DNA from: an uncultured Acidobacteriota bacterium
GTDB taxonomy: Bacteria; Acidobacteriota; Vicinamibacteria; Vicinamibacterales; UBA8438
Assembly: GCA_913043225.1 (NCBI GenBank)
Contig: CAJWLU010000001.1
Coordinates: 64,001 to 128,000, forward strand
Reading direction: 5' to 3'
Length of the DNA: 64,000 nt
Made by a program: the position numbers and the translations under genes
Notes under the pieces: generated by a model
Seen by the model: only the letters and a program-made list of their open reading frames with translations
What the model was told of the DNA's origin: nothing
Databases searched by the model: none
Shown: one piece after another, positions 27,455 through 56,543 of the stretch
Numbering within the stretch: the first letter of the stretch is position 1
Layout of the letters: every line of letters begins with the position of its first letter

Positions 27455-27548
27455 CAGTATTTACGCTCCCGTGGAACTTGTTCGATCAGTCAAGTCTACG
27501 ACTTCGGTGGTCATCATGCCAGAATGACAGTCCTTCCAAGGAGGACAA

Positions 27549-39113: not shown

Positions 39114-39596
39114 ATGGCAAAGCGGTACTGGTTGATGAAATGCGAACCGAGCGCCTACAGCATCGGCGACCTCGAGCGCGATGGGGAAACCTGCTGGGAA
39201 GGCGTCCGCAACTTTCAGGCACGCAACTTCATGCGGGACGACATGCAGATTGGCGACGGCGTCCTCTTCTACGCTTCGAACGCGGATCCGTCTGGTGTCT
39301 CAGGCCTGGCGACGATCGCCAAGACCGGCTATCCGGATCACTTCGCGTGGAAGAAAAACCACAAGTACTTCGATGTCCGAAGCACCAAGGAAAAGCCGAT
39401 CTGGTTCATGGTGGACCTAGCCTTTCAGGAGCGATTCTCGGACACCGTACCACTGTCCGCCTTGAAAGGGACCAAGGGCCTAGAAGAGATGAAGGTGGTG
39501 CAGAAAGGGAGTCGCCTGTCGGTGCAGCCGGTCACCAAGAAGGAATACGACATCGTCGTCAGGCTCAATCGCAAGACGAAAACAGCCGCAGGCTAG
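39114..39596 (+). CDS. EVE domain-containing protein
   Basis: YWLMKCEP, WEGVRNFQARNFMR, RLSVQPV. Confidence 0.93.
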   Translation: MAKRYWLMKCEPSAYSIGDLERDGETCWEGVRNFQARNFMRDDMQIGDGVLFYASNADPSGVSGLATIAKTGYPDHFAWKKNHKYFDVRSTKEKPIWFMVDLAFQERFSDTVPLSALKGTKGLEEMKVVQKGSRLSVQPVTKKEYDIVVRLNRKTKTAAG

Positions 39597-39635
39597 GTCA
39601 GCCTGCGGCCCTGGCCATCTCCCGTTCGGGACGCG

Positions 39636-41063
39636 TCAGTTGTTCGTGGGTTCAACCACGGCCTTGATCATTTCCCGCAGCAGCCCCCAGCGATCGAAAC
39701 CCTGGCGGCCGTAGTCGAGTCCCCGCCGGACGATCACCAGATCGTGCGACGGCGCGATCACGACGAACTGGCCGCGGTTACCAGACGTCGAATAGGCGTC
39801 CCTCGGGACGTCGTCGCGCCCTTCCGGAACCAGCCAGAACTGGCCGCCGTAATGCCCCCCGCGCCCAACGGTGGCCGGGGCCGGCGTGCGAATGAAGTCG
39901 ATCCACGACTCCGAGACGAGCCGCTCGCCGTTCCAAACCCCGCCGTTCAGATACAGGAGTCCGAACCGCGCGAGGTCTCTGGCGTTGGTGTAGATCTGGC
40001 TGCTGAGGATGAAGTCGCCGAAGCGATCGGTGCTGAGCAGGGTGTTCCGCATCCCGATCTTGTCGAGCAGCCTGTGACGAGGGAACTCCAGATAGGCCTG
40101 ATCGTCCCCGATCACCTGCTTCATCTTGTAGACCGCCAGCAGGGTGTCGTAGTTCTCGTAGTCCCAGTTCGTCCCGGGCTTGCGAATCAGCGCCTGCCTG
40201 AGCGCGCCGGTCACCGAGCTGGCGCCGGCCCAGTAGGACATGCCGGAGCCGGTGGCATACTCCCGACCGGCGTTGTCGATGGTGTCGAGCCCGCTCGACA
40301 TGTTCAGCACGTGCCGCAGCGTGACCTCGCTCCGCGGGTCCTCTCCAGGCACACGGGTGCGCGGCAGCCACTCGAACCCCAACGACTCGTCGAGCTGCAT
40401 CTTTCCCTCGTCGACCAGCATGCCGATGAGTGTCGACGCGATGCTCTTCGCCGTGGACCAGGTGCGAGTTCGGGTGGTCATGTCCACCCCTGGCGCGTAG
40501 CGCTCGTGGATGATGTGCCCGTCGTGTACGACCAGGAGACTCAGCGTGTCCTGTTCCGGGGTGTCTCGCTCGAACGCCCAGTCCGAAGCGGCCTGGAGCG
40601 CGCCCGCGTCGATCCCCGGAGGCAGCGACATGTCCGCCACCAGGTCACCATCGGGCCAGGCGATAGTCGCCGGATCACCCTCCGGATACTGCAGCGTGAG
40701 CTCAGGCAGCGCCTCGATATCGGTGAGGGTTTGGTCCGGCGGCAGGATGACGCACCCTATCCCTTCCCGAAACGCCGCCCGCATGACCGGTACTGCGCCC
40801 TCGGTCCCGATGATGACGGCCCGGCGGGCCTGGTCGATCTCGTAGGGGTGTACCTCTGGTAGAAACGCCAGTTCCTGCGCCACCACACTCTCGAGACTGC
40901 GGTTCGAGGTAAACAGGCCGTTGCACATGAAGATAGCCTGCTGCCCCCGCCGGATCATGTCCCGCTGCGGCTGCCAGTAGTCGTAGCGCTCTTCCTGCTG
41001 TGCAACAGCCGACAGCGGCGCGAGCAGCGCCAACCCGACGAGCACGGTCAACGTGCGCTTCAT
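39636..41063 (-). CDS. Exported serine hydrolase (beta-lactamase class C / NylB-like)
   Basis: Signal peptide; WSTAKS (SxxK), LNMSSGL, YEN, ARDLARFG, GNRGQ. Confidence 0.88.
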   Translation of the reverse strand: MKRTLTVLVGLALLAPLSAVAQQEERYDYWQPQRDMIRRGQQAIFMCNGLFTSNRSLESVVAQELAFLPEVHPYEIDQARRAVIIGTEGAVPVMRAAFREGIGCVILPPDQTLTDIEALPELTLQYPEGDPATIAWPDGDLVADMSLPPGIDAGALQAASDWAFERDTPEQDTLSLLVVHDGHIIHERYAPGVDMTTRTRTWSTAKSIASTLIGMLVDEGKMQLDESLGFEWLPRTRVPGEDPRSEVTLRHVLNMSSGLDTIDNAGREYATGSGMSYWAGASSVTGALRQALIRKPGTNWDYENYDTLLAVYKMKQVIGDDQAYLEFPRHRLLDKIGMRNTLLSTDRFGDFILSSQIYTNARDLARFGLLYLNGGVWNGERLVSESWIDFIRTPAPATVGRGGHYGGQFWLVPEGRDDVPRDAYSTSGNRGQFVVIAPSHDLVIVRRGLDYGRQGFDRWGLLREMIKAVVEPTNN

Positions 41064-41160
41064 CTGCCCCTCCTCAGAGGTACTCTTACCTCAAACTGAA
41101 TCCCCAAATTATATCGACCGGAAGCCTGAAGCCGCAGGCCGACAGCAACCGTCGGACTGC

Positions 41161-42402
41161 TCACAACACCATCAGCGCCGGCTGTTCGAGATAACGCTTC
41201 ACAGCAGCAAGCAGCTCGGCACCGGTCGCGCCATCGATGGCGCGATGATCCGCCGAGAGCGTGCAACTCATCATCGTCCCGATCCGAACATCGTTGCCTA
41301 CCGCGATCGGCCGCCTCGTCGCCGACCCCACCCCGAGCACACAGCTCTGCGGAGGGTTGACGATGGCGAACAGGCTATCGACACCGTACATCCCCAGGTT
41401 GGAGATAGTGAACGTGCCGCCCGTGTAGTCATCCGGCCGAAGGGAGCCCTCCCGGGCCCGCGCAACCAGCGCCCGGCTATCGCGAGCGATGTCGCCCAGA
41501 TCCTTCGTGTCGGCCGCCCGGATGATCGGCGTGATCAGCCCGTCAGCGGTGTTCACGGCCAGGGCGATGTCGACGGCATCATAGAGGCGGAGTGCGCCAC
41601 CCGCCCAGGCCGAGTTAGCGCGCGGCACGTGTCGGAGCGCGAGCGCCGCAGCTCGGATCACCAGGTCGGTCAACGTTGGCGCCTGGTCACGTCCGAGTGT
41701 CTTCGCCTGGGCGATAACGACCATGGCGGCATCGACGTCGCACTCGGCCCTCAGGTAGAAGTGCGGTACCGTCTGCTTCGCCTGCTCCATCCGCGTCGCC
41801 GTCACGCGACGCATGGCGGTCAGCGGTTCGTCACGGAAGCCCCCGCCCTCGCTCGCGGCAGCCGAGGCCAACGACGTCTCCGCTCCCAGGGCGCCAGGAA
41901 GCAATCGGTCGATGTCGGCCTTCATGATCCGTCCGTCGCGTCCGGTGCCGGCCACCTTCGAGAGATCGATCCCGGCGGCGGACGCCATCCTCCTGGCCAT
42001 CGGTGTAACTGCAACCGCAGCGCCCTCAGTCGACGCCGCGTCAACGGTCTCCTCTTCGGCTTGCGACAGGGTCGTGGACGCGGCCGTCTTCTCGAGCGGC
42101 GCCGTGGGTGCCGTCGACACGGCCGCCAGGGTCGGCCCGCTCGTCTCCGCATGCGGCCGGATGAGCGCCAGCAGTGCCCCGGTCTCGATCCCCTCGGTCC
42201 CCTCGGCGACCTGGATCGCGCTCAGTACCCCCGCGACCGGCGCCTCGAGCTCGACCGTCGTCTTGTCTGTTTCGACTTCGACGATCGGCTCACCAGCCTC
42301 GACACGATCGCCTTCACGCTTGAGCCAGGCGCCCACGATCACCTCAGTGACCGAATCGGCCAGCTGCGGCAGACGCACCTCGGTCGGTAACTCCCCACTC
42401 AT
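41161..42402 (-). CDS. 2-oxoacid dehydrogenase E2 (dihydrolipoamide acyltransferase), one lipoyl domain
   Basis: ETDKTTVE lipoyl site, GTGRDGRI binding domain, FTISNLG, DHRAIDG. Confidence 0.93.
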   Translation of the reverse strand: MSGELPTEVRLPQLADSVTEVIVGAWLKREGDRVEAGEPIVEVETDKTTVELEAPVAGVLSAIQVAEGTEGIETGALLALIRPHAETSGPTLAAVSTAPTAPLEKTAASTTLSQAEEETVDAASTEGAAVAVTPMARRMASAAGIDLSKVAGTGRDGRIMKADIDRLLPGALGAETSLASAAASEGGGFRDEPLTAMRRVTATRMEQAKQTVPHFYLRAECDVDAAMVVIAQAKTLGRDQAPTLTDLVIRAAALALRHVPRANSAWAGGALRLYDAVDIALAVNTADGLITPIIRAADTKDLGDIARDSRALVARAREGSLRPDDYTGGTFTISNLGMYGVDSLFAIVNPPQSCVLGVGSATRRPIAVGNDVRIGTMMSCTLSADHRAIDGATGAELLAAVKRYLEQPALMVL

Positions 42403-44753
42403 CTAACACACAACCTCGCCGCCGCCTCCACGATAGCGTCGGCATCCAACTGATATGCCGCATACAGGTCCGGCACATCACCGGACTGGCCAAAACTAGT
42501 AACCCCAAGCGGGAGCACCCGATGCGATCCCACCGCCCCCAACCAGGACAGGGTCGCGGGATGGCCGTCGAGCACCGTCACCAGCCCCGCGTCGGTCGCC
42601 AGCGGCTCCAGCAGTCGCCGGACCGGCGCCTTGCTTGGCCTCCCTGCGATCACCGCCCGCATCCACTGCTGGTGCAGTCGGCCCGGACAGGTCACCACGA
42701 GCAGCCCGACGCCCGGAATATCCTCGACGATCTGCGCATGAGCATCCAACGCCTGGTCCACAATGGCACCGCTCGCCACGATGGCCAGTTCAGCCCCCTC
42801 AGCCGGAGGCCGCAGCCAATAACCACCATCAACGATCTGGCGGTGGTCTGCAAGCGTCAACTCCCGATCGGGCTGCGCCAGCGGGCGGGTTGAGAGGCGT
42901 AAATAGACGGCTCCCCCCTCGTCCGCCTGCATATGCTCGAAACTCCACCGGAGCACGACCGCAAGCTCGTCCACGTAGGCCGGTTCGAACGCGGTGAGTC
43001 CCGGCTGCCCCATCCCGATGAGCGGCGTCACGACAGATTGGTGCGCACCGCCCTCTGGGGCTAAGCTAACTCCGGACGGCGTTGCAACGACGAGGAACCG
43101 CGCGTCCTGGTAGCAGGCGTAATTCAGCGCATCAAGCCCACGGCTAATGAATGGGTCATAGAGCGTTCCGATGGGGAGCAGCCGGGTCCCGAACAGCGGC
43201 CCCGTCAACCCGAGCGCAGCGAGCAGCAAGAACAGGTTGTTCTCAGCAATCCCCAGCTCAAGATGCTGTCCCTCGGGCCCCATCGTCCAGTCTTGAGCCG
43301 ACAACGGCTGGTCGCCGCGAAAGACATCCGCCTGCGCCGACTTATTGAAGACGCCCCGGCGATTGACCCAGCCTCCGAGATTAGTGGACACCGTAACGTC
43401 GGGCGACGTGGTCACGATGCGATCCGCTAGCTCGGGGTGACGTCGCGCGATGTCGGCCAGCACCCGTCCGAAGCCAGCCTGAGTGGAAAGCCGGTCGCCA
43501 GGAGGCGGTGTCAGCGACTCTGGCACCGGCACCAGCGCCGCCACGTGACGCCGCTCGGCCGACTGACTGAACGGCACGGTGTTGAGGAACGCGCGAAGCC
43601 GCACTGGGGAAACATCCAGTCCCGCGAACGGGTCCCACTCGGCTCCCGCCTCGATGCCCATCTGGTCACGCAGGGTAGCTATCTGGTCAGGTGTGGTCAG
43701 ACCCGAGTGGTTGTCCTTATGGCCCTCGAACGGGAGACCGTGCCCCTTGATGGTGTAGGCGATAAAGCAGACTGGCGTCTCCTCGGTAGCGGCCTCGTGA
43801 AATGCCTCCCGCACCGCCTCCAGATCGTGGCCGGCCAGATTGGTCATCAGCGTGTGCAACCCGACATCGTCATGCTCGTCGAGCAGCTCCGCGATACCCG
43901 AGGTATCCCCGAGGTCGCGGACCAGCCGCTCCCGCCAGGCGGCGCCACCCTGATAGGCCAGCGCGGAATACTCGGAGTTCGGGCAATCATCAATCCACCG
44001 CCGGAGCGACTCGCCACCACGGCGGGCGAACGCCGTCTCGAGTCGCTTGCCATACTTGAGGGTGACCACCCGCCACTCCATCGACGCAAACAGCGTGTCG
44101 AGCCGATGGAAGAAACGGTCGGCCACGATCGCATCAAGGCTCTGGCGGTTATAGTCGACGATCCACCAGGTGTTGGTGATTTGGTGCTTCCAGGACTCGA
44201 GCAGCGCCTCGAAGACGTTGCCCTCGTCGAACTCGGCGTCGCCAGCCACCGCGATCATGCGACCAGGAGGGGCGTCGCCGTCGATGAGCTTCCGGTGCCG
44301 GAGATAGTCTTGCGCTAGCGCGGTGAAGCTGGTCATGGCCACCCCCAGACCAACCGACCCGGTGGAGAGGTCGACGTCGTCGAGGTCCTTCGTCCGCGAG
44401 GGATACGACTGCGCGCCCCCGAAGGCCCGGAAGCGCTCCAGCTGCTCACGGCTCTGGTTGCCAAGCAGGTACTGGATCGCGTGAAACACCGGGCTACCGT
44501 GCGGCTTGACTGCCACCCGATCGAACGGCCGCAGCACGTCGAAATACAGGGCAGTCATCAGCGTCACCATCGACGCACATGACGCCTGGTGCCCCCCAAC
44601 CTTAAGCCCGTCCCGGCTGGGGCGCACATGATTGGCGTGGTGGATCATCCAGGCGCTAAGCCAGAGCACCTTCTGTTCAAGTGCGGCCAGGCACTCCTCA
44701 GAGGTCGTGTTCGCGACCGAGGCCGACACGCCAGAGAGAGAGGGAACTGTCAT
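42399..44753 (-). CDS. Single-chain transketolase-like 2-oxoacid dehydrogenase E1 (AceE/MdeB-like)
   Basis: KVGGHQAS, QSYPS, STGSVGLG, GDAEFDEG...NRQ ThDP motif, GIAE, EGGAHQS. Confidence 0.88.
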   Translation of the reverse strand: MTVPSLSGVSASVANTTSEECLAALEQKVLWLSAWMIHHANHVRPSRDGLKVGGHQASCASMVTLMTALYFDVLRPFDRVAVKPHGSPVFHAIQYLLGNQSREQLERFRAFGGAQSYPSRTKDLDDVDLSTGSVGLGVAMTSFTALAQDYLRHRKLIDGDAPPGRMIAVAGDAEFDEGNVFEALLESWKHQITNTWWIVDYNRQSLDAIVADRFFHRLDTLFASMEWRVVTLKYGKRLETAFARRGGESLRRWIDDCPNSEYSALAYQGGAAWRERLVRDLGDTSGIAELLDEHDDVGLHTLMTNLAGHDLEAVREAFHEAATEETPVCFIAYTIKGHGLPFEGHKDNHSGLTTPDQIATLRDQMGIEAGAEWDPFAGLDVSPVRLRAFLNTVPFSQSAERRHVAALVPVPESLTPPPGDRLSTQAGFGRVLADIARRHPELADRIVTTSPDVTVSTNLGGWVNRRGVFNKSAQADVFRGDQPLSAQDWTMGPEGQHLELGIAENNLFLLLAALGLTGPLFGTRLLPIGTLYDPFISRGLDALNYACYQDARFLVVATPSGVSLAPEGGAHQSVVTPLIGMGQPGLTAFEPAYVDELAVVLRWSFEHMQADEGGAVYLRLSTRPLAQPDRELTLADHRQIVDGGYWLRPPAEGAELAIVASGAIVDQALDAHAQIVEDIPGVGLLVVTCPGRLHQQWMRAVIAGRPSKAPVRRLLEPLATDAGLVTVLDGHPATLSWLGAVGSHRVLPLGVTSFGQSGDVPDLYAAYQLDADAIVEAAARLCVR

Positions 44754-44808
44754 AACACCGTCACCGATCGTATCCGGACCGGGCCCGAAGGCGCACGGGG
44801 GGTCTCGC

Positions 44809-45849
44809 TCAGCGGTCCGGCGGTTCGTACTTGAGCAGGGCGCCGCCGTAGGCCACTACGGCGCCATAGACCGTCCCGTCCGGGGCTACGGCCACGCCTT
44901 CGGGGTTCGAGCCGTCGATGAAGGCCGTCAGCGAACCGTCCCGCAAATTGCCGATCCGAATGCCGTACTCCCAACCCGAGTGCTGCCCGTTCCGTGACGA
45001 GGCGGAATCGGCCACGTACACCGTGTCGTCGGCGGCAATGTGTAACCCGCTCGGCCGGCTGTATTGATAGAACTCCTCGATGAACTCGCCCCCGGTGTCG
45101 AACACCTGCAGCCGGTCATTGCCGCGGTCGGCCACAACCACCCGCCCCCGGGAATCGAGGTCGATCGCGTGAGGGGTCCGGAATTGCCCCGGCCCGCTGC
45201 CATGCGACCCCCACTCGCCTATGTAGGCACCGTCGGAGGCGAACTTGACGACCCTGGCGGTAGTGTGCGGACCTGCATCGGCCGCCTGCCCCCCATGTCC
45301 ATCGGCCACGAAGATGGTGCCGTCGGCCGCAGTCACGACGTCACAGGGTTGATCCAGCGTATCGCGGCCAGCCGCTCCCACGCCGGGCGTGCCGAGCGTT
45401 AGGAGCAGGTCGCCGTCTGGACTGAACTTCATCACGACGTGCCCCTTACCTTCGCGGGCAGGGTCTCGTCCGTCAGGACCCAACGAGTCAGTCACCCAGA
45501 CTGCACCGGCCTGATCGACGTGGAGTCCGTGCGGCTGCACCATCATGCCCCGACCGAAACTCGCAACCAAAGTCCCGTCCAGTCTGAACTTCAGGATCGG
45601 ATCAAGATCGGACCGCGCGCAGTCGTTGGCACCGCAGCGCTCGGCTACCCAGAGATGGCGTCCGTCGGGATCCACGTCAACCCCGCCGGTTGATCCCCAC
45701 TCACGACCGGCCGGCAATCCCGCCCAGTCCTCGGCCGTCACATACGGATTGGGAGCGTCGTTCTGGGGAAGGATATCTGGCTGGGCACTAGCCGAGGAGG
45801 CGGCCACGGCCACGAACATGAACGTCTGCACGCGTGACGCGAAGAACAC
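44809..45849 (-). CDS. NHL-repeat protein, peptidyl-alpha-hydroxyglycine alpha-amidating lyase (PAL)-like, exported
   Basis: Signal peptide; PHGLHVD, FVADGH, FRTPHAI, VADRGNDRLQVF. Confidence 0.8.
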   Translation of the reverse strand: MFFASRVQTFMFVAVAASSASAQPDILPQNDAPNPYVTAEDWAGLPAGREWGSTGGVDVDPDGRHLWVAERCGANDCARSDLDPILKFRLDGTLVASFGRGMMVQPHGLHVDQAGAVWVTDSLGPDGRDPAREGKGHVVMKFSPDGDLLLTLGTPGVGAAGRDTLDQPCDVVTAADGTIFVADGHGGQAADAGPHTTARVVKFASDGAYIGEWGSHGSGPGQFRTPHAIDLDSRGRVVVADRGNDRLQVFDTGGEFIEEFYQYSRPSGLHIAADDTVYVADSASSRNGQHSGWEYGIRIGNLRDGSLTAFIDGSNPEGVAVAPDGTVYGAVVAYGGALLKYEPPDR

Positions 45850-45855
45850 GGGTTC

Positions 45856-47427
45856 CTACTGGGCAACGATGGCGGCTCGTCCCTGACGCAGGACATACTT
45901 CTGGATCTTCCCGGTGGCCGTCTTCGGGAGCTCGTCGACGAAGTGCACCTTGCGCGGAGTCTTGAAGTTGGCCATGTGCTCTCGCGCGTAGGCAACGAGC
46001 TGGTCGGCTGTCATCATCGCCTCCGGAGCCAACACGATGAACGCATGTGGGGTCTCGCCCCATTTCTCGTCGGGCATGCCCACAACCGCCACCTCCTGGA
46101 TTGATGGATGCCGCATCAGCACTCCCTCGACTTCAACCGACGAGATGTTCTCGCCGCCACTGATGATGACGTCCTTGAAGCGGTCGCGGATCTCCACGTA
46201 GCCATCGGGATGGACCACAGCGGCGTCGCCGCTGTGGAACCAGCCGCCCCGCATGGCGTGAGCCGTTGCATCGGGGTCGTTGTAGTACCCCTCCATCACC
46301 ACATTGCCACGCACCACGATCTCACCGAGCGTCTCGGCATCACGTGGCACCGGGACGCCGTCCTCGTCCACCACCTGCAGTTCGCCCGAGGTGATGAGCT
46401 CAACGCCCTGGCGCGCCTTGACTACGGCGCGCTCATGGAGCGCCAGTTCGACATGCTCTGGGCGGGCCTCACAAACGGTTATGAACGGTGCGGTCTCGGT
46501 CAATCCGTAGACGTGTGTCAAATCCCACCCGAACTCGCCCTCGACCCGCTCGATAGTCGCCGCCGCCGGTGGAGCCCCCGCGGTGAGCACCCGCACGCCG
46601 GACGGCACGTCGCCCCGCTGGTCGGCGGAACAGCTCGCCAGTCCGATCAATACGGTGGGCGCGGCGCACAGCATGCTGACCCGTTCATCGCGCATTAACT
46701 GGAAAGCCTGCACGGGATCCACCTTCCGCAAACAGATGTGGACCCCACCCACGGCGGTCACGATCCAGGTGAACGTCCAGCCGTTGGCGTGGAACATCGG
46801 CAACGTCCATAAGTAGCGATCGACACAACTCATCGGGATGTGGACGAGCGTGCCCACCGCGTTCATGTAGGCGTTGCGGTGCGTGATCATCACGCCCTTC
46901 GGGCGTGAGGTGGTACCGCTGGTGTAGTTGATGGTCAGCAGATCCTGCTCCGAGATGTCCGGGCGGCTGAACTCGCCGGACTCAGTCGTACACAGCGCCT
47001 CGTAGTCGAGCCAACCTCCTCGCTCGCCTTCGAGTGCGACGTAGTGCTCGACCGACGGACAGTTAGCACGTATGCCGTCTACCGTCTCGAGGAAGTCGGC
47101 ATGGGCGCACACCACCCGGGCTCCCGAGTGCTGGACGATGTATTCGATCTCCTGCGGCTTGAGGCGGAAGTTGATCGGCACCAGAACAGCGCCGGCCTGA
47201 GGCACAGCGTAGAACGACTCAAGGTGCGCCGCGGTATTCAGCGAGATGTAGGCGACCCGGTCACCCTTGCCGACTCCCAGGCGCTGTAGCGCCGCCGACC
47301 ATCGGTCGGCGTGCTGGAAAAACGCCTCGTAGGTGAGCCTCCGCCCCTCGTCGACAACGCACTCTCGCTCGGGATACAGCGCCCGGGCCCGACGCTGAAA
47401 CTCGAGCGGGGTGAGCGGGGTCTCCAC
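45856..47427 (-). CDS. Acyl-CoA synthetase (AMP-forming)
   Basis: YTSGTTSRPKG, YLWTLPMFHANGW, YGLTE, WFHSGD, IISGGENI, PKTATGKIQK. Confidence 0.93.
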   Translation of the reverse strand: METPLTPLEFQRRARALYPERECVVDEGRRLTYEAFFQHADRWSAALQRLGVGKGDRVAYISLNTAAHLESFYAVPQAGAVLVPINFRLKPQEIEYIVQHSGARVVCAHADFLETVDGIRANCPSVEHYVALEGERGGWLDYEALCTTESGEFSRPDISEQDLLTINYTSGTTSRPKGVMITHRNAYMNAVGTLVHIPMSCVDRYLWTLPMFHANGWTFTWIVTAVGGVHICLRKVDPVQAFQLMRDERVSMLCAAPTVLIGLASCSADQRGDVPSGVRVLTAGAPPAAATIERVEGEFGWDLTHVYGLTETAPFITVCEARPEHVELALHERAVVKARQGVELITSGELQVVDEDGVPVPRDAETLGEIVVRGNVVMEGYYNDPDATAHAMRGGWFHSGDAAVVHPDGYVEIRDRFKDVIISGGENISSVEVEGVLMRHPSIQEVAVVGMPDEKWGETPHAFIVLAPEAMMTADQLVAYAREHMANFKTPRKVHFVDELPKTATGKIQKYVLRQGRAAIVAQ

Positions 47428-47428
47428 G

Positions 47429-48751
47429 TCAGTCGTCGTCGCTCGTCCGGCGCGCGCGCCGGTCGGCGACGATGGCGTCGTAGTCCTCTTCGGTCAGATA
47501 CGTCATGTTCACATGCGCGTGATACATGTCGTCGTAGCTCCGCTGCCCCCACCCGACCCACTGGGTCGGATCCGGGTTCGCACGATTGGCCGCCGTGTTG
47601 TCATGTACCGCGGTCAAGTGAATGATCGTACCGGCGGGCAGGACGGGCGCAGAATCGTCCGTGTAGACGTAGTTCACGTGCCAGTTGAAGTCGAAGTTTC
47701 CGACGTGGTTCAGCATCTCGACGCGGCCATCTGGATAGATCGCTTCCATTGACATCGACTTGCCCCGTACGTGCATGTGCGGCTGGTAGTTCTCGAGACG
47801 CGCCGGCAGGGTCAGCGGCACATAGGCATGGTGCGTCGTCACCTTCCCGGGCGGGATGTCCAGCGTCGCCATCGACTGCTGCACGCCGAGCGCGCGCCCG
47901 AAGACGCGATACTTCGGCACATAGCCTTTTTCGTGTAGCCAGATTCCCACCTCGGTGTAGCTTGTGAGCTCCTCGCCCACCGAATGGTAGTGGTTGTCGA
48001 ACGCGATGCGGGAATCCGCCTTCAGCAGCTTACCGGTGTTCTCGCGGAACACGTCCCCGATCTTGCCGACTGCGAACTCGGTCAGATAGCTGCCACGTCC
48101 CGGCACGTCCACGGCCGGCGTGTGATCACCGGCCTGCTCCTCCTGCTGGAGATACACCACCGAGTGATGGGTGACCCGTCGTCCGCCACCCATCGACGGT
48201 CGCACCTCCATCCCCGTGATCCAGCGGTCTTCAGTCAACCCAGTCGGTACGACCGGCTGCCACCACTGGTCCTGGCCTTCGGCTGCCTGGGTCCAAGGGT
48301 CGGAGGCCACGACCAAATCCGGCTCCCGGCCATACCGCTCCGCGAGCCGCCACACATCCTCAGCCGGCCAATTCACCGGCGGGGGAGCGTCGGCCGCGTT
48401 TCCCCGGGGCGCGCCGGCGTCGACCCAGCGCGCGACGATGTCGATCTCGGCGTCGCTCAGCGACGTGTCGTTCTCGAATTGCCGGATGCCGACGGTCTTG
48501 TCGAGGTGCCAGGGAGGCATCACCCGCCCGACCACCTTCTCCCGGACTGCGCGCGCCCAGGGCCTGACGTCCTCATAGGTCACCAGCGACATCGGCCCCA
48601 TCTGCCCGGGCCGGTGACAGCCCTGACAGCTGCGCTGCAGTATGGACTCGACATCGCGCGTGAAGGTGACCTCGGTCTGCGCAGACACACTTACCGCTCC
48701 GAAGAGGGCAAGGGCGGCCGTCATGGCCCCGATTCGTCCGTTGGTCATCAT
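47429..48751 (-). CDS. Cytochrome c-fused copper type II (PHM/DBM-like) monooxygenase
   Basis: AGGAG SD before ATG 48751; signal peptide; CQGCH...MPPW; THH, NHYH, PHMH, DDM copper ligand pattern. Confidence 0.8.
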   Translation of the reverse strand: MMTNGRIGAMTAALALFGAVSVSAQTEVTFTRDVESILQRSCQGCHRPGQMGPMSLVTYEDVRPWARAVREKVVGRVMPPWHLDKTVGIRQFENDTSLSDAEIDIVARWVDAGAPRGNAADAPPPVNWPAEDVWRLAERYGREPDLVVASDPWTQAAEGQDQWWQPVVPTGLTEDRWITGMEVRPSMGGGRRVTHHSVVYLQQEEQAGDHTPAVDVPGRGSYLTEFAVGKIGDVFRENTGKLLKADSRIAFDNHYHSVGEELTSYTEVGIWLHEKGYVPKYRVFGRALGVQQSMATLDIPPGKVTTHHAYVPLTLPARLENYQPHMHVRGKSMSMEAIYPDGRVEMLNHVGNFDFNWHVNYVYTDDSAPVLPAGTIIHLTAVHDNTAANRANPDPTQWVGWGQRSYDDMYHAHVNMTYLTEEDYDAIVADRRARRTSDDD

Positions 48752-48791
48752 CGTCTCCTGGTCTTCTGGCGCCATTTCCGGCGGCAGGTCC

Positions 48792-49634
48792 CTACTGTAC
48801 CGTGACCGGCACGAACCCATTCGTCCAGCAGCAGAAAAATCCTCCGGCCATGATGGCGGCCTGGCCACCCGAATCGTCCCAGGCGAGCACGCGCAGCACA
48901 TACTCTCCAGGCGCATCGAACGTCACCATCGTCTCCGCGCGGGCGTCGGCGCCGACCTCTGGAGTGGTCGACGAGAACGCCACCCCGCCGGGCCCACGGT
49001 ACTTGCTCCACACTAGGCCGAACCGGGGCGGGCGGTCCGCCGAGCGCGCCTTGCGCACCCCATCATCGGAGGCCCAGACGCGAATCGGCGTCGGCACCCC
49101 GGTCTCGGCGGTCACGCGGTCAGCGCGCACGCCGAACGGTCCCTGTCCAGCGGCACCGTCGGCACCCTGGAACCGGACGACCGGGGGCGTATTCCCGCTC
49201 GTTACCTCTTCGAGCGCCGTGATCTCCCAGCCGGGCTCCAAGTGCCCGGGAATCACGATTGTCTCACCGTACGACGTCAAGCTCCAGATCAGCCGGGCCT
49301 CACCGAAATCGGCCGGCACCGTCACCCCAAAGACCCCGGTATGGCGGCGCGGCAGGAAGTGCGTCGGCTGCCCCCGATCCGTCGGACCCGGCTCAAACCG
49401 GTTCTCCGGACCGACCGGAATCGTCAACTCTTCTTGGTAGTTCCGATTGAAGTAGCCGAAAACCAGCGTTCGTGTCCCATCGGTATTGCGGTACCACCCT
49501 TCGTACGAGGCGGTGACGCTCTGACCGCGCTCATGCGGTATCGGTGCGCCCAGACGGATGTCCTGTCCCAGACTCGGCTGGACGACCAGGAGCGACAGAC
49601 ACAGTCCGACGCCTCCACAAAATACTCGCTGCAC
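48792..49634 (-). CDS. Exported hypothetical protein with Ig/PKD-like C-terminus and vicinal Cys-Cys
   Basis: YEGWYRN..G...LVFGYFNRN; WSKYRGPG; FFCCWTN; start moved to GTG 49634, which gives a signal peptide. Confidence 0.7.
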   Translation of the reverse strand: MQRVFCGGVGLCLSLLVVQPSLGQDIRLGAPIPHERGQSVTASYEGWYRNTDGTRTLVFGYFNRNYQEELTIPVGPENRFEPGPTDRGQPTHFLPRRHTGVFGVTVPADFGEARLIWSLTSYGETIVIPGHLEPGWEITALEEVTSGNTPPVVRFQGADGAAGQGPFGVRADRVTAETGVPTPIRVWASDDGVRKARSADRPPRFGLVWSKYRGPGGVAFSSTTPEVGADARAETMVTFDAPGEYVLRVLAWDDSGGQAAIMAGGFFCCWTNGFVPVTVQ

Positions 49635-49763
49635 GATGCCGTGATCATGAAGAACCCACCTGCAGGTGTCAACGGCCCCAACCACACAACCGTACAGAGA
49701 AAGAGGGCCGGAGTGCGTCGAGCACTCCTGCCCTCTGCGTACTAAGTGGTCCAGCAAGGAGAC

Positions 49764-50093
49764 CTAGACCATATCCTTCAGCTTCTTCAGTGGAAGGACC
49801 TTAACTCGCGTCGACGCGGGCTTGGCAGCCACGTCCATGAGTTCGCCTGGACGGAACGGGTTCGGGACATTCTTCCGCGCCTTCTGTGCCGGCTTTCGGA
49901 CGGTCTTGATCTTCATCAGGCCAGGCACGGTGCAGATCCCGACCGCTCCCTTAGCCACATGACGACCGATGACCCCTTCGAGCGCCTCGAATACCGAGGC
50001 CACCTGCTTCTTCGACAGATCGGTAGACTCGGCGATGTTCGCCAGCATCTGGGTCTTCGTCATCGCCGCCTTAAGCTTCGTGCTTCTCGCCAA
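49764..50093 (-). CDS. HU-family DNA-binding protein
   Basis: MTKTQMLANIAE, LSKKQV, NPFRPGE arm, LKKLKDMV; TTG start. Confidence 0.9.
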   Translation of the reverse strand: MARSTKLKAAMTKTQMLANIAESTDLSKKQVASVFEALEGVIGRHVAKGAVGICTVPGLMKIKTVRKPAQKARKNVPNPFRPGELMDVAAKPASTRVKVLPLKKLKDMV

Positions 50094-50297
50094 TCTCGCC
50101 TCCCGGGTAATGCGTGAACGAACCGATAACGTCCGAGTATGTTACCTGTATTACACAGTTTTTCCACGCGCAGATTGAATATCTCCGGCTGTACCGCCTA
50201 GACCGGTCCCTGTCGAGGTTGGCCACCACCCCAGAGGTTCTCGCCTGGGGGCGTCTTGATCAACACTGTTGGGCGCAACGACAATCACCGACGACCC

Positions 50298-51902
50298 ATG
50301 CCCAAGACCCAGTCTCCGACCGACACCGCTCCAGCCCGCACCACGATCTCGGGTCACCCGATCGAAGAACGCTATACGGCCCAGGACGTCGCCGACACGC
50401 CACCCCCCTCCCCACCAGGCACGTTCCCCTACACGCGCGGTATCCACGCTAGCGGGTATGGCGGAAAACTCTGGACCATGCGTCAGTTCTCGGGATTCGG
50501 CTCTCCGGCCGACACCAACGCGCGCTACAAGCAGCTTCTAGCCGCAGGGGGGACCGGGCTGAGCGTCGCCTTCGATCTGCCGACGCTGATGGGTCGCGAT
50601 CCGGACCACCCGCTGTCGCGAGGCGAAGTCGGGAAGTGCGGGGTCAGCGTCGCGTCGCTCGCCGACATGGAGCGGCTGTTCGCCGACATCCGGCTGGACG
50701 AGGTCACCACTTCGATGACCATCAACTCGCCGGCCGCCATGATCTTCGCGATGTATCTGGTCGTGGCCGAGCGGCAAGGCGCCGGCTGGGCGACGCTTTC
50801 GGGCACGCTCCAGAACGACATCCTCAAGGAGTACATAGCGCAAAAGGAGTTCATCTATCCGCCCAAACCGTCGATGCGCCTGGTCACCGACACGTTCGCC
50901 TTCTGCGCCGACGAAACTCCCCAGTGGAACACGATCTCGGTGAGCGGCTATCACATTCGCGAAGCGGGAGCCACGGCGCTCCAGGAGCTGGCTTTCACGT
51001 TGCGCGACGGCGTCGAATATGTGCAGTACGCGATTGACGCCGGATTGGAGGTGGACCGCATTGTTCCCCGGATGTCGTTCTTCTTCAACGCACACAGTGA
51101 CTTCTTTGAGGAAATCGCCAAGTATCGCGCCGCGCGCACGCTCTGGGCGACGACCATGCGCGATCGTTTCGGCGCGACACGCGAACGGACCTGGAAGCTA
51201 CGCTTCCACACGCAAACGGCAGGCGTCTCGCTGACGGCGCAGCAGCCCTACAACAACGTCATCCGGACCGCGATCCAGGCACTGGGTGCGGTGCTCGGCG
51301 GAACGAACTCGCTCCACACCAACTCCCTCGACGAAGCGCTCTCGCTCCCGACGAGCGAGGCGGCGTTGCTCGCCCTCCGGACCCAGCAGGTCATCGCGTA
51401 CGAGAGCGGCGTTGCCGACCACGTCGACCCGTTCGCCGGCTCGTACTTCCTCGAGAGTATGACTCGCGATCTCACGCAGGGCGCTCGAGACTACTTCCAG
51501 CAAATCGACGACATGGGAGGAATGGTCTCCGCGATCGAGCAAGGATTCCCGCAACGCGAGATCGCCGAAAGTGCGTATCGGTTTCAGCAAGAAGTAGAGA
51601 CGGGCGCTCGTTGGATGGTCGGCGTGAATCAGCATCTCGACGAGGCACGCCCCGAGGTTGAGACGCTGTACATCGACGAGGCGATCTCGGACCGACAGTG
51701 CACGCAGTTGGACGAGCTACGTGCCCAACGCGACACCACCGAGGTGACCCGCACCCTCGATCGGCTCCGAGACACCGCCCGTGGAACCGACAACCTCATG
51801 CCGTCGCTCCTCGACGCCGTGCGAGCGTACGCCACCCTGGGAGAGATGTGCGACGCCTTGCGGGACGTGTGGGGAGAGTACGAAGAACCAGCGTCGCTGT
51901 AG
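50298..51902 (+). CDS. icmA: Acyl-CoA mutase large subunit with isobutyryl-CoA mutase signature
   Basis: [44 protein letters not shown]; no B12-binding domain; start moved to ATG 50298. Confidence 0.75.
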
Positions 51903-51915
51903 GACTCATCCCACC

Positions 51916-53088
51916 ATGACCAACCCCGGCTCCCTAGCTCGCCCGCTGACCACTCTCTCCGACGAAGAGCAGCTCTTTCGCGACAGCGTGCGTGACTTCG
52001 CCCGCGCGGAGATCGGTCCGCTGGTCCGCGAGATGGACGACCGGGCCGAGATTCCCGAGGCGCTCATCTCCCAGCTGTTCGAGCTCGGCGTGATGGCCAT
52101 CGAGATCCCCGAGCGATTCGGAGGTGCGGGCGCCGGTTTCTTTCTCTCTATCCTCGCCGTCGAAGAGCTATCGCGCGTCGACCCTTCGATCGCGGTGCTG
52201 GTTGACGTCCAGAACACGCTGGTCGTAAACGCGGTCCTGAAGTGGGGCTCCCCTGGCGTTCAGCAACGGTTCCTCCCCGCACTCGCAAGCGATACGGTCG
52301 GTGCCTACGCGCTCTCCGAAGCCGGGTCTGGCAGCGATGCGTTCGCGCTAACGACCCGCGCCGTGCAGGACGGTGATGACTACGTGCTCACGGGCCGGAA
52401 GCTCTGGATCACCAATGGACGCGAGGCTGGCCTGTTCATCGTAATGGCCACCGTGGACCCAAGCGCCGGACACCGCGGCATCACAGCATTCGTGGTGGAA
52501 GGCGACCGGCCCGGACTGACCATCGGCAAGAAGGAGGATAAGCTCGGCATCCGGGCATCGAGCACCTGTGAGGTGCTCCTCGACGAGTGCCGGATCCCGG
52601 GCGCCAACCTTCTCGGAGAAATCGGACGTGGCTACAAGGTGGCGATCGAGACGTTGAACGAAGGACGCATCGGCATCGGCGCCCAGATGGTCGGGCTGGC
52701 ACAGGGCGCGCTGGACCACGCAACGGCGTACGTGCGGGAACGGGAGCAATTCGGACAACCAATCGCCGCGTTCCAGGGAGTGCAGTTCCAGCTGGCGCAA
52801 GCTGCAACCGACCTCGAGATGGCCCGTCTGGGGGTGTACAACGCAGCGCGGTTGCGGGACGCCGGTCAGCCGTTCCTTACCGAGGCGGCGATGGCCAAGC
52901 TCTTCACGTCCCAGATCGCCGAAAGGGTCACCTCACTGGCCGTCCAGCTCTTTGGCGGAGCCGGGTATACCAAGGACTATCCCGTGGAAAAGCTGTATCG
53001 GGACGCGAAGATCGGTCAGATCTACGAGGGCACGTCCAACATGCAGCTACAAACAATCGCGAACCAGGTCATCCGCTCCGGCGGCTGA
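51916..53088 (+). CDS. Short/branched-chain acyl-CoA dehydrogenase
   Basis: ALSEAGSGSD, GRKLWITN, KLGIRAS, REQFGQPI, IYEGTS. Confidence 0.92.
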   Translation: MTNPGSLARPLTTLSDEEQLFRDSVRDFARAEIGPLVREMDDRAEIPEALISQLFELGVMAIEIPERFGGAGAGFFLSILAVEELSRVDPSIAVLVDVQNTLVVNAVLKWGSPGVQQRFLPALASDTVGAYALSEAGSGSDAFALTTRAVQDGDDYVLTGRKLWITNGREAGLFIVMATVDPSAGHRGITAFVVEGDRPGLTIGKKEDKLGIRASSTCEVLLDECRIPGANLLGEIGRGYKVAIETLNEGRIGIGAQMVGLAQGALDHATAYVREREQFGQPIAAFQGVQFQLAQAATDLEMARLGVYNAARLRDAGQPFLTEAAMAKLFTSQIAERVTSLAVQLFGGAGYTKDYPVEKLYRDAKIGQIYEGTSNMQLQTIANQVIRSGG

Positions 53089-53783: not shown

Positions 53784-55169
53784 CTACGGGCTGGCCGCTG
53801 AGTGCGACTCGAGGAAGGCAACCACGGCGTCAAATCCGACCGAGCGCGCCTGATCAATTACCGTCAGGCCGAAGAGGTCGGTCGCATCTACGTCGGCCCC
53901 GAGCTCGACCGCGACGCGCACCGTGTCGAGTCGAAGCGACTCCAGCTCCAACCGGTTCGGCGGCTTCCAGGAGCGGAGGCGGCCGCCGCCCATCCCGATC
54001 GCTGCCATGACGGCGGTGGTGGCCTCCTGGCGCGGCTGCGCGTAGCCCGGGTCCTTGTAGTCGGCGTGATGGATCACCCGAGGGTCGGCGCCATGGTCTG
54101 CGAGCAGAAGCATGACATCGGGCGCATTGAACCGGGCGGCCAGCCAGAACGGTGTGGCTCCCACCAGCGGCGGAGCAAAGTGGAGATCACGCGACGAGCG
54201 GCGGGTCGGCGTCCACGTGTTCAGCGTGGCATTCGGATCGGCGCCGTGCTCGAGCAAAGTCCGAACCATCAGTGGATCACGGCGCATGACCGCGGCGTGC
54301 AGGGCAGCAAACCCAGCCTCGGACGCTCCAGCATCAGCGCCAGCCTCCAGCAACAGCGTCACCAGCTCACCGAATCCGGCATGGGCAGCCAGCGTCGTCG
54401 CGCTCACACCCCAGGCATTGGTGTCGTCCGCGTTGGCGCCCGCCGCTAGTAGCAGACGTGCCGAGGCGACATCGCCCCCCCGTGCCGCGAACATCAGCGC
54501 GGTGTTGCCGCCGTGCGGGATCTCGCGGTTGTACTCCGGCTGGCCGTGCGGCGGCACCGCCATCACCTGGCTCCAGACCTCGGACCGCGCATGGAGGTCA
54601 ACGCCGCTGTCGATCAGGACCTGGACGACAGAAGGATGCTGCTGGGCCACCGCCCACATCAGGGCTGTCTGCCCGCGGGTCCCCCGTGCCTCGGGGTTGG
54701 CTCCGGCTCGAAGGAGGAGCTCGACCACCTTGGCCGCACCGCTTCTGGCCGCTACCATGACCGGCGTTTCGCCTGCTAGGAGCGCCAGGTTGGGATCGGC
54801 GCCCGCTTCCAGCAGACGACTCACGGCGTCCGTGCTACCGTTCTCCGACGCCGTCCACAGCGCCGACACGCCGAGATCATTGACGGCATTCGCATCGGCG
54901 CCGCCAGCCAGCAACCGGTCGAGGGTCTCGATCTCGTCGTGATAGCTGACCCAGTGCAGAGCGGTCGCCCCATCAGGTTCGGCCGCGTTGACGTCGGCGC
55001 CAGCGGCGAGGAACGCCCACACCTGCGCCATATCGCCCCCTCGGGCCGCGGCGACCAGCGGTAGCTCTTCGGCGACCAGGCTGACTAACGGCGACATCGC
55101 GCACACGACCCCAATGACAATTCGCGTCGGCCACCGTCGAGTAATCTGCCAGCTCTGACGTACAGACAT
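53784..55169 (-). CDS. Secreted ankyrin repeat protein (paralog of 14481-15950)
   Basis: GATALHW, GETPVMVAA, GQTALMWAV, GNTALMFAA repeats. Confidence 0.92.
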   Translation of the reverse strand: MSVRQSWQITRRWPTRIVIGVVCAMSPLVSLVAEELPLVAAARGGDMAQVWAFLAAGADVNAAEPDGATALHWVSYHDEIETLDRLLAGGADANAVNDLGVSALWTASENGSTDAVSRLLEAGADPNLALLAGETPVMVAARSGAAKVVELLLRAGANPEARGTRGQTALMWAVAQQHPSVVQVLIDSGVDLHARSEVWSQVMAVPPHGQPEYNREIPHGGNTALMFAARGGDVASARLLLAAGANADDTNAWGVSATTLAAHAGFGELVTLLLEAGADAGASEAGFAALHAAVMRRDPLMVRTLLEHGADPNATLNTWTPTRRSSRDLHFAPPLVGATPFWLAARFNAPDVMLLLADHGADPRVIHHADYKDPGYAQPRQEATTAVMAAIGMGGGRLRSWKPPNRLELESLRLDTVRVAVELGADVDATDLFGLTVIDQARSVGFDAVVAFLESHSAASP

Positions 55170-55174
55170 GTCGG

Positions 55175-56515
55175 CTACAGCAGGCCGTCAAGGGTCGAGA
55201 TCGGCAACCGCCCAGTGCTGCCGCCGATCCGCTCCACGGGCACCCGCATCTTGTCCATGAGCGTGACCAGCAGGTTCGCCATCGACGGCTGATCGGTATA
55301 GCGAAGATGGCGCCCGCTCGGCAGCGTGCCGGCTCCGCCGCCGGCCAGCAACAGCGGGAGATCTACTCCCGAGTGCCGGGTGCTGTTCGAAAGGCCTGAA
55401 CCATAGAGGATGGTGATGTGGTCGAGCAGCGACCCGTCACCGTCGGGCGTCGCACGGAGCTTGGTGAGATAGTTCGAAAACAAAGTCGTGTGGTAGCGGT
55501 TGATCTTCGACATGTGCTCGACGAGCTCGGGCACGTCGTTGTGATGCGAGAGCGGATGGTGCGCCTCGGGCACGCCGATCTGCGGATAGGGCCGAGCACT
55601 CTGCTCCTTGCCGACCATGAACGAGATAACTCGGGTCAGATCCGCCCGCATGCCCAGGATCTGCAGGTCAAGCATCAGCTCCAGGTGATCCTCGAACTCG
55701 GGCGGCGCCCCCTGAGGCTGGTCGACGGCCGGGAGCTCCAATCCGGACTGCTCCTCAGCCTTCTGAATCCGACGCTCCACGTCGCGGATGGCCTCAGTGT
55801 ATTCCTCGACCTTCAGCACGTCGCCTGGGCCGAGCTCGCGGCGCAGGGTGGCCAGTTTGTCGGTCACCGAATCGAGCAGGCTCCGCTGCTGGCGTAGCCG
55901 AGCTTCGCGCGCCTCGCGGTCGGTGCTCCCGCTATCGCCGAACAGTGTCTCGAACACGGCGCGTGGATTCCACTCGGTGGGAAGGGGCTGGGTCGGGCTG
56001 CGCCACGACAACGTATGGGTGTAGACGCAGCTCAGATTGCCGGTACAGGCGCCGGCGTTGTTCGGTGGATCGAGCGACAGCTCCAGAGATGGCACCTGGG
56101 TTTCGCCAGCAAAGTGACGCGCTAGAAGCTGGTCCATCGAGACATCGGCCAGGATCTCGATCTCGTTCCGTCCGCCGCGGGTGGTACCGGTGAGGAACGA
56201 CCCGGACGCGCCCGCGTGGATGTAGTTCCAGCTGGCGTTGAGCCCAGACAGCACGACCATCTGGTCCTTGAAGTCGGCCAGTGGCTCGAGGATGGGCGAC
56301 AGCGCGTAGGCGGTCCCCTCCTGCTCGGGTGTCCAGTAATCCATCGCCATGCCGTTGGGGACGTAGAACGCCTGGAAGCGATGCGCGGTCGCCGGCGCAG
56401 CCAGGCCCCGAAGGCCAAAGGCCGGGTGCATGGCGTCGAGTGCCGGCAGGGCGAGACTGGCTCCCAGGCCGCGAAGTACCGTGCGGCGCGGCAACGACTT
56501 GGTCAGGAACGTCAT
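55175..56515 (-). CDS. DUF1552 domain protein
   Basis: RRTVLRGLGASLALP, YVPNG, NPRAVFETLFG, HHPLSHH, DGSLLD. Confidence 0.9.
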   Translation of the reverse strand: MTFLTKSLPRRTVLRGLGASLALPALDAMHPAFGLRGLAAPATAHRFQAFYVPNGMAMDYWTPEQEGTAYALSPILEPLADFKDQMVVLSGLNASWNYIHAGASGSFLTGTTRGGRNEIEILADVSMDQLLARHFAGETQVPSLELSLDPPNNAGACTGNLSCVYTHTLSWRSPTQPLPTEWNPRAVFETLFGDSGSTDREAREARLRQQRSLLDSVTDKLATLRRELGPGDVLKVEEYTEAIRDVERRIQKAEEQSGLELPAVDQPQGAPPEFEDHLELMLDLQILGMRADLTRVISFMVGKEQSARPYPQIGVPEAHHPLSHHNDVPELVEHMSKINRYHTTLFSNYLTKLRATPDGDGSLLDHITILYGSGLSNSTRHSGVDLPLLLAGGGAGTLPSGRHLRYTDQPSMANLLVTLMDKMRVPVERIGGSTGRLPISTLDGLL

Positions 56516-56543
56516 CTAGATCTTCTCCTGTGTCCGTGGGTCG

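Follow-up and report, generated by a model that had tools for sequence, protein, structure and literature searches.

A probable catabolic cluster containing a cytochrome c-fused PHM-like oxygenase in marine Vicinamibacterales, with a PAL-like propeller gene inserted in one species

A 64,000-nucleotide stretch of DNA from an uncultured Acidobacteriota bacterium (Vicinamibacterales, UBA8438; contig CAJWLU010000001.1, positions 64,001 to 128,000), which we call the window, carries a tight run of seven minus-strand genes. They encode a partner protein with immunoglobulin (Ig)-like domains, an oxygenase that resembles the PHM domain of animal peptidylglycine alpha-amidating monooxygenase (PAM), an acyl-CoA ligase, an NHL propeller that resembles the PAL domain of PAM, the E1 and E2 components of a 2-oxoacid dehydrogenase, and a serine hydrolase. 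We favor the reading, with a probability of about 0.6, that this region is a catabolic-type cluster conserved within one marine Vicinamibacterales family and that the PAL-like NHL gene lies outside the conserved unit. In the family this unit consists of the partner, oxygenase, ligase, E1, E2 and hydrolase genes together with divergent genes for an acyl-CoA mutase and an acyl-CoA dehydrogenase (ACAD). The NHL gene is a recent add-on, a species-specific insertion between the ligase and E1 genes. A first-pass annotation of the window had joined the PHM-like and PAL-like proteins into a split PAM-like system within a catabolic operon; its description of the genes is confirmed here and its interpretation is partly supported.

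Conservation of the cluster and insertion of the NHL gene

The window is part of a 3.85-Mb genome in 55 contigs (G000, the own genome in the comparisons below). We examined 80 loci around oxygenase orthologues that are 56-94% identical to the one in the window (1.455 Mb in total). The ligase gene adjoins the oxygenase gene in 31 of these loci, 29 of which reach E1. Searches with tblastn and a family hidden Markov model (HMM) find an NHL gene between ligase and E1 in none of the 29. The gap between the two genes is at most 342 nucleotides in 28 of them, and a gap of 2,055 nucleotides in locus L006 is occupied by AAA_21 and DUF3226 genes. Across all 80 loci, the family HMM detects five NHL open reading frames (ORFs) in four loci, none of them in the operon group. 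The ligase gene also directly precedes E1 in five of five relatives with an E1 that is 78-81% identical, a set that may overlap with the 80 loci.

Genomes G006 and G004 contain orthologues of the NHL gene itself (77-82% identity), as do six metagenome loci (L108-L113). None of the seven that are informative (G006, G004 and L108-L112) has genes of the operon alongside, L113 being too short to tell, and their contexts differ from one another: the gene follows a Pyr_redox_2 gene in G006 and lies between pyrroloquinoline quinone (PQQ)-propeller and amidohydrolase genes in G004. The placement seen in the window recurs only in L107, a 100-kb metagenome contig that is 94-99% identical to it. With its NHL gene at this position, L107 shows the arrangement to be real and not an assembly error. 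In this comparison the NHL gene (L107:6001-7041) is 94-95% identical and its six neighbors are 97-100% identical, which makes it the most variable member of the run. As far as searched, the arrangement is confined to this species. A genome of the same genus (G001, 77% complete) cannot date the insertion because its E1 contig ends inside E1 and a ligase orthologue was not found there.

Relatives show comparable insertions of unrelated genes at junctions of the run. In at least six loci, a 502-amino-acid K+ channel gene (Ion_trans and RCK domains) separates the E2 and hydrolase genes (the insertion is recorded for L004, L008, L009, L014, L022, L024 and L074), and an AAA_21-containing, AbiEii-like cassette separates E1 from E2 in L005, to which the genes in the ligase-E1 gap of L006 may be added. 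Across the relatives, a fused or consistently linked PHM and PAL pair is not found at this locus. Since the linkage is not conserved, the PHM and PAL pairing at this locus is not an established system, and the earlier proposal of a single two-enzyme system fails the synteny comparison, whose negative outcome the annotation had itself named as refuting (0 of 29 related loci with an NHL gene and 7 of 7 orthologues elsewhere). The adjacency should consequently be treated as a species-specific insertion and not cited in favor of a bacterial amidating system.

The oxygenase and its partner protein

The relationship of the oxygenase to PHM is visible at the level of fold. Pfam returns only a weak cytochrome c match for this protein and no Cu2_monooxygen match (PF01082 or PF03712) at E <= 0.01, and neither phmmer nor a family profile finds PHM among PDB sequences. 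Precomputed Pfam assignments for 120 oxygenase relatives likewise contain only cytochrome c families or none. However, an AlphaFold2 model (mean predicted local distance difference test score, pLDDT, of 72) retrieves only PHM or DBH structures among its first approximately 30 Foldseek matches (best E = 6.5e-12). Structural comparison with VIA aligns 240-247 residues of model region 131-423 with PHM 45-327 (Z = 17-18, root mean square deviation (rmsd) 3.0-3.5 A), a Z score that holds across 26 PHM entries and DBH. Over the PHM and DBH structures together, 240-287 residues align with an rmsd of 3.0-4.0 A, and the next-best fold, PNGase F, reaches a Z of only about 9. The model thus has the two-domain fold of the PHM catalytic core, and the structural comparison with PHM that the first-pass annotation had suggested as a check bears out its assignment at this level.

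Ten residues are invariant in all 25 aligned oxygenases: C42, C45, H46, H195, H196, H254, H256, H325, H327 and M409. The first three form a CxxCH haem c motif in the N-terminal domain, in agreement with the cytochrome c part of the earlier assignment. Judged from motif spacing and the ranges aligned by VIA, as opposed to residue-level superposition, the pair H195/H196, H254, H325-x-H327 and M409 appear to match the placement of PHM residues 107/108, 172, 242/244 and 314. We take these PHM residues to be the ligands of the CuH (His-His...His) and CuM (His-x-His...Met) sites. With a signal-peptide-like N-terminus in addition, the oxygenase is, as modeled, an exported haem c domain fused to a two-copper monooxygenase core of the PHM/DBH type. 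Copper type II monooxygenases (PHM, DBH and TBH) receive electrons from ascorbate or another external reductant. In the bacterial enzyme the supply may be mediated by haem, as the fused CxxCH domain would suggest.

This oxygenase belongs to a large family: of 8,000 candidates scored, 4,613 proteins reach E <= 0.001. There are 19 copies in the own genome and 21-33 matches in each of five complete relatives. Our full-text literature searches, from which subscription journals are mostly out of reach, found no paper on bacterial cytochrome-c-fused PHM-like enzymes and none on bacterial PAL-like lyases; two reviews (PMC12164859 and PMC6529398) are likewise silent in the portions available.

The gene directly 5' of the oxygenase encodes a protein that has a signal-peptide-like N-terminus, matches nothing in Pfam or NCBIfam and belongs to no known family. 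Its C-terminal CCWTN motif (C268, C269, W270, T271 and N272) is nearly invariant. The predicted structure (pLDDT 84.6) consists of two Ig-like beta-sandwich domains, which Foldseek matches only to generic Ig tandems (best E = 4e-5, TM <= 0.34), and the function of the protein therefore cannot be read from its fold. Its association with the oxygenase is nearly constant. The partner gene is found directly 5' of the oxygenase gene in 78 of the 80 related loci, the remaining two of which start at the oxygenase, and all 13 partner matches in the own genome adjoin one of its 19 oxygenase matches. The partner and the oxygenase are the real conserved module. If our core reading is true, the family carries at least 19 copies per genome of a periplasmic copper oxygenase that is wired to cytochrome c and accompanied by an Ig-like partner.

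The NHL propeller and its relation to PAL

The N-terminus of the NHL protein is signal-peptide-like, and the protein matches the Pfam NHL family, with additional weak matches to SGL, lactonase and Vgb-lyase families. About 13 paralogues of this exported propeller family occur in the own genome, and 5,255 proteins score E <= 1e-30 among 8,000 scored. In a search of PDB sequences, residues 93-261 are collinear with PAM 571-726 (PDB 3FVZ, E = 1.3e-17), and a profile of 12 NHL family sequences matches PAL at E = 2.3e-31. TRIM-NHL proteins outscore PAL in these searches, but they do so only because one and the same blade is matched repeatedly. The protein is a six-bladed NHL propeller with a sequence relationship to PAL. 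The C-terminal third has no PAL match in the PDB sequence search.

The residues of the PAL active site appear to be only partly retained. We take the relevant set in PAL to be the zinc ligands His585, His690 and His786, the catalytic Tyr654 and Arg706, and we place these positions on the NHL protein from alignment ranges and blade register instead of a residue-by-residue alignment. On this mapping His107 and His227 fall at the positions of His585 and His690, and Arg242 lies near that of Arg706. The position of the catalytic Tyr654 appears to be taken by His185, given that the alignment ends with residue 186 at PAM 655. Blade register places Glu317 at the blade-6 position of the third zinc ligand, His786, and a cross-blade match puts Pro168-Cys169 on PAM 785-786. 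All five of these residues (His107, His185, His227, Arg242 and Glu317) are invariant in 12 of 12 members of the NHL family. The protein would thus lack two residues of the PAL catalytic set. With His at the Tyr654 position and Glu at that of His786, it is best described as a variant relative of PAL and not a copy of its active site. The sequence relationship claimed by the first-pass annotation stands, and the equivalence of the catalytic residues probably does not.

Links between NHL propellers and oxygenases elsewhere

Several observations weigh against leaving the NHL gene outside the functional unit. The NHL gene begins 6 nucleotides after the ligase stop codon with no internal terminator-like site, and it is therefore probably cotranscribed with the oxygenase. 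Five complete relatives have 54 NHL genes, of which 6 are found no more than 6 kb from an oxygenase gene (2.5 expected, P = 0.045), and in the own genome the count is 3 of 13 (0.83 under the null, P = 0.036); these and the following P values are uncorrected, four distances having been tested in the relatives, and related genomes are not independent. Widening the distance to 10 kb in the relatives leaves 6 of 54 (4.2 expected, P = 0.24). Three control families in the own genome give comparable figures: 3 of 10 ACAD genes lie within 6 kb of an oxygenase gene (null 0.70, P = 0.034), as do 13 of 71 PQQ dehydrogenase genes (null 7.0, P = 0.021) and 7 of 25 DUF1552 genes (null 2.4, P = 0.009) within 10 kb. 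NHL genes are consequently about as close to oxygenases as the other gene families in these islands are. The controls are not clean negatives, however, as these families may have functional ties of their own to the oxygenases.

A further association occurs in a second minus-strand run on the same contig, before the window (Table 1), in which a paralogous oxygenase/NHL pair lies 6-14 kb from the window's first base. Its genes encode, in order, a PepSY_TM protein, a second partner (partner2), a second oxygenase (cytPHM2), a 2Fe-2S protein, a molybdopterin-binding dehydrogenase, an ACAD and NHL548, a 'DGH'-type propeller of 548 amino acids that carries a helical tail some 200 residues long. In G000, G006, G010, G145 and G011, the NHL548 orthologue lies on the same strand as partner2-cytPHM2 at a distance of roughly 0.1-4.3 kb, and the orthologues in G005, G013, G022 and G112 have no oxygenase gene within 5.5-9 kb. 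Three further genomes (G001, G004 and G082) are uninformative, as their contigs end too soon. The pair is thus linked in five of nine informative genomes across four genera, with genus g10 split two to one. In addition, an NHL gene of the 'DGY' type, with Tyr in the His185 column, lies convergently about 0.1-0.5 kb from an oxygenase orthologue at two gammaproteobacterial loci. These cases leave room for certain NHL propellers and certain oxygenases to be functionally connected, without restoring the pairing claimed in this operon. The caveat attached to the original proposal, that two expanded gene families may be adjacent by chance, is the better account of the adjacency and is nevertheless incomplete, given the linkage of cytPHM2 with NHL548. 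That pair, outside the window, is a better place to test a partnership between PHM-like and PAL-like proteins.

The two gammaproteobacterial loci (L037:1376-8362 and L039:3524-12844) belong to metagenome-assembled genomes. Their oxygenase is 74-75% identical to the acidobacterial one, and the adjoining operon encodes a second oxygenase pair, a tetratricopeptide repeat (TPR) protein, a 2-oxoglutarate (2OG)-Fe(II) oxygenase and a hydrolase that is 73-74% identical to that of the window. Identities this high between proteins of different phyla suggest gene transfer.

The strongest competing explanation for the NHL gene is functional recruitment in this species. The oxygenase would hydroxylate the carbon beside an amide nitrogen, as in an N-acylglycine or similar compound, the inserted propeller would split the resulting carbinolamide, and the hydrolase, ligase and E1/E2 would consume the pieces. 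The PHM fold and ligand motifs of the oxygenase, the two PAL matches together with the inferred His585, His690 and Arg706 counterparts, the signal-peptide-like N-termini of both proteins, the close gene spacing without an internal terminator-like site, the 5 of 9 linkage of cytPHM2 with NHL548 and the 'DGY'-type genes beside gammaproteobacterial oxygenases all speak for such an event. However, the related operons work without any NHL gene, which is absent from 29 of 29 and present only in the near-identical L107. The NHL orthologues sit in mutually different contexts, His and Glu appear to replace the Tyr and the third zinc His, the C-terminal third does not align with PAL, and the proximity statistics resemble those of control families. 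We therefore regard recruitment as rather unlikely.

A broader version of this idea would make the two families a periplasmic counterpart of PAM that serves breakdown, independent of ascorbate and driven by the respiratory chain. In it, the oxygenases, fed by haem c, would hydroxylate the carbon next to amide nitrogens and 'DGH' propellers, whose metal site would be His-His-Glu and which would have His where PAL has its catalytic Tyr, would split the carbinolamide; the substrates would be N-acyl amino acids or the ends of peptides in dissolved organic matter. The pairing would be old at cytPHM2/NHL548 and re-created in this species by insertion of a paralogue into a second oxygenase operon. 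We consider this speculation distinctly unlikely.

Alternatively, the propeller could serve a partner other than the oxygenase, as a lactonase- or lyase-type enzyme tied to ligase or PQQ-dehydrogenase pathways, and could have landed here with or beside the ligase function. Ligase-NHL adjacency does occur twice in the own genome. In the second instance (G000:C5:3290-8130, equivalent to L131), a PQQ dehydrogenase gene, a gene for an acyl-CoA ligase that shares 34% identity with that of the window and an NHL paralogue stand in a row. NHL genes also adjoin PQQ-propeller genes at G000:C23 and in G004 and L039. The weak SGL, lactonase and Vgb-lyase matches fit this explanation, as do the source names of the 120 best NHL relatives, which are hypothetical protein, YncE, YvrE lactonase or streptogramin lyase and never PAL. 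Yet these counts are small, none of the 29 related operons has an NHL gene beside the orthologous ligase, and, with a cytoplasmic ligase and an exported NHL protein, a link between the two is possible only through a pathway. We judge this explanation very unlikely.

PQQ-dehydrogenase-like genes are hugely expanded in these bacteria, as seen at 25391-29522 of the window and genome-wide, with 71 tblastn matches in the own genome and 49-66 in each complete relative, where many of the matches listed contain one in-frame stop.

The remaining enzymes and a possible pathway

Pfam and NCBIfam matches agree with the families that had been assigned to the ligase, NHL protein, E1, E2 and hydrolase. The ligase matches the AMP-binding family PF00501 at E = 2.5e-83 and NF004837 at 532 bits (cut-off 476), and no signal peptide was noted in it. 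E1 has the transketolase/pyruvate dehydrogenase E1 domains (thiamine diphosphate (ThDP)-binding, pyrimidine-binding and C-terminal set). It aligns nearly end to end with TIGR00759 at only 154 bits against a cut-off of 860. Of 12 genomes of the family, 11 have this E1, which is single-copy; it was found in none of eight genomes that represent eight further families of the order. The domains of E2 are a lipoyl domain, an E3-binding domain and a catalytic 2-oxoacid_dh domain. Neither E1 nor E2 reaches an NCBIfam equivalog cut-off, and the run contains no E3 gene, the search for one having been confined to the run. The hydrolase is a member of the Beta-lactamase family PF00144 (E = 2.6e-30, 106 bits against a cut-off of 27) with its SxxK motif present as S-T-A-K. 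The protein starts with a signal-peptide-like segment, carries an N-terminal extension of about 170 amino acids and reaches no curated NCBIfam cut-off.

From family knowledge, a pathway can be proposed in which the haem domain would take electrons from periplasmic respiratory carriers instead of ascorbate and pass them to the copper sites, where a C-H bond of a small organic substrate would be hydroxylated. The hydrolase could then cut an ester or amide bond, and the released acid would be imported and activated with CoA by the ligase. Subsequent processing may involve carbon-skeleton rearrangement by the mutase, the ACAD, and oxidation of a 2-oxoacid by E1/E2. If the core reading holds, the link to acyl-CoA metabolism within the cluster would suggest that dissolved organic compounds which are hard to degrade are attacked oxidatively.

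The catabolic appearance noted in the first-pass annotation is upheld by the ligase, E1/E2, hydrolase and divergent mutase and ACAD genes, and the same genes argue against the suggestion that the cluster makes amidated metabolites or peptides. That suggestion draws on analogy with animal PAM only. Pfam scans of the run and its flanks reveal no precursor-peptide, non-ribosomal peptide synthetase (NRPS), export or maturase genes, the last of the kind that acts on peptides made by the ribosome and modified after translation (RiPPs), and the 19-33 oxygenase matches per genome are more in keeping with diversified substrate use. A biosynthetic role is extremely improbable.

Organization of the region

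The ORF list gives seven minus-strand ORFs from 49634 down to 39636 in the order named at the outset, and the coordinates agree with the tight spacing originally described (Table 1). The promoter-like site listed there is a consensus match only; the scan returns two such sites in the region against 1.6 expected. No terminator-like site comparable to the one 3' of the hydrolase gene appears within the run in the same kind of consensus scan.

Table 1. Features of the seven-gene run, its flanks and the second run on the same contig
Feature	Position	Strand	Remarks
Sigma-70-like promoter site (TTGACA, 17 nt, CATGAT)	49644-49672	-	consensus scan; just 5' of partner gene
Partner, Ig-like, CCWTN motif, ~280 aa	48792-49634	-	GTG start at 49634; first gene
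Cytochrome c/PHM-like oxygenase	47429-48751	-	~40 nt after partner; start is the Met preceding the signal peptide
Acyl-CoA ligase (AMP-binding)	45856-47427	-	1 nt after oxygenase stop
Six-bladed NHL propeller, PAL-like, 'DGH' type	44809-45849	-	6-nt gap from ligase
E1, AceE-type, divergent	42399-44753	-	55-nt gap from NHL gene
E2 acyltransferase	41161-42402	-	4-nt overlap with E1
Beta-lactamase-fold serine hydrolase	39636-41063	-	97-nt gap from E2
Terminator-like hairpin, 12-bp stem and T-run	39584-39610	-	consensus scan; 3' of hydrolase gene
Acyl-CoA mutase large-subunit-type gene	50256-51902	+	divergent from run; kept beside cluster in relatives
Acyl-CoA dehydrogenase (ACAD)	51781-53088	+	ORF as listed; true start probably after 51902
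Second run, outside window	G000:C1:50074-59658 (= L128:4072-13658)	-	~4-14 kb before the first base of the window

Five marine RNA-library runs contain small shares (0.07-0.10) of the seven-gene run. Contigs from four libraries of three studies (151-576 nucleotides, 93-99% alike) overlap parts of all seven genes, including the NHL gene at 44978-45273 and 45251-45469. Among the contigs listed, none spans a gene junction by 31 nucleotides on both sides. With no junction bridged, and because such libraries can contain DNA, the RNA contigs neither show nor refute cotranscription.

A 109-amino-acid ORF (49764-50093, minus strand), with a GC-rich inverted repeat after it, lies just 5' of the run. 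On visual inspection its product resembles an HU/IHF-type DNA-binding protein; NCBIfam gives nothing at E <= 1e-10. Elsewhere in the window, a minus-strand trio (53784-59057) encodes a PSD/PSCyt cytochrome with DUF1592 and related domains, a DUF1552 (HXXSHH) protein and an ankyrin-repeat protein. The same trio follows partner, oxygenase and PQQ dehydrogenase genes in a second group of orthologues, at 18-22 of the 45 loci that lack the ligase/E1 context, gammaproteobacterial ones included. With its haem, the PSD protein is a candidate redox partner of the oxygenases.

Comparison with known systems

The oxygenase shares the two-domain beta-sandwich fold of the PHM core of rat PAM (PDB 1PHM, 1OPM, 3MLL and 5WJA) and of human DBH (4ZEL), and the spacing of its invariant HH, H, HxH and M motifs appears to fit the positions of the CuH and CuM ligands. 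Unlike these enzymes, it is a bacterial, exported protein with an additional N-terminal haem c (CxxCH) domain, its gene is nearly always adjoined by a partner gene, and 19 copies are present in one genome. It has no sequence-level match to PHM or DBH, and the identity over structurally aligned residues is 15-17%.

The PAL domain of rat PAM (PDB 3FVZ and 3FW0) is likewise a six-bladed NHL propeller. The NHL protein is collinear with it over the matched region and seems to have His107 and His227 where PAL has His585 and His690, and Arg242 near Arg706, but it probably has His185 in place of Tyr654 and Glu317 in place of His786, and its last third is unmatched. Whereas PAL is joined to PHM in PAM, the NHL protein is not fused to the oxygenase and the adjacency of their genes is not conserved.

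The E1 and E2 components are similar to AceE and AceF of the Escherichia coli-type pyruvate dehydrogenase in having a homodimeric-type E1 and an E2 with lipoyl, E3-binding and catalytic domains. They differ in that the cluster E1 is a second, family-restricted copy that falls far below the 860-bit cut-off, the run is without an E3 gene, and the canonical set is encoded on another contig. Finally, the hydrolase has PF00144 membership and the SxxK motif in common with family VIII esterases, NylB-type amidases and D-aminopeptidases, the likeness to NylB being a proposal of the first-pass annotation; its long N-terminal extension sets it apart.

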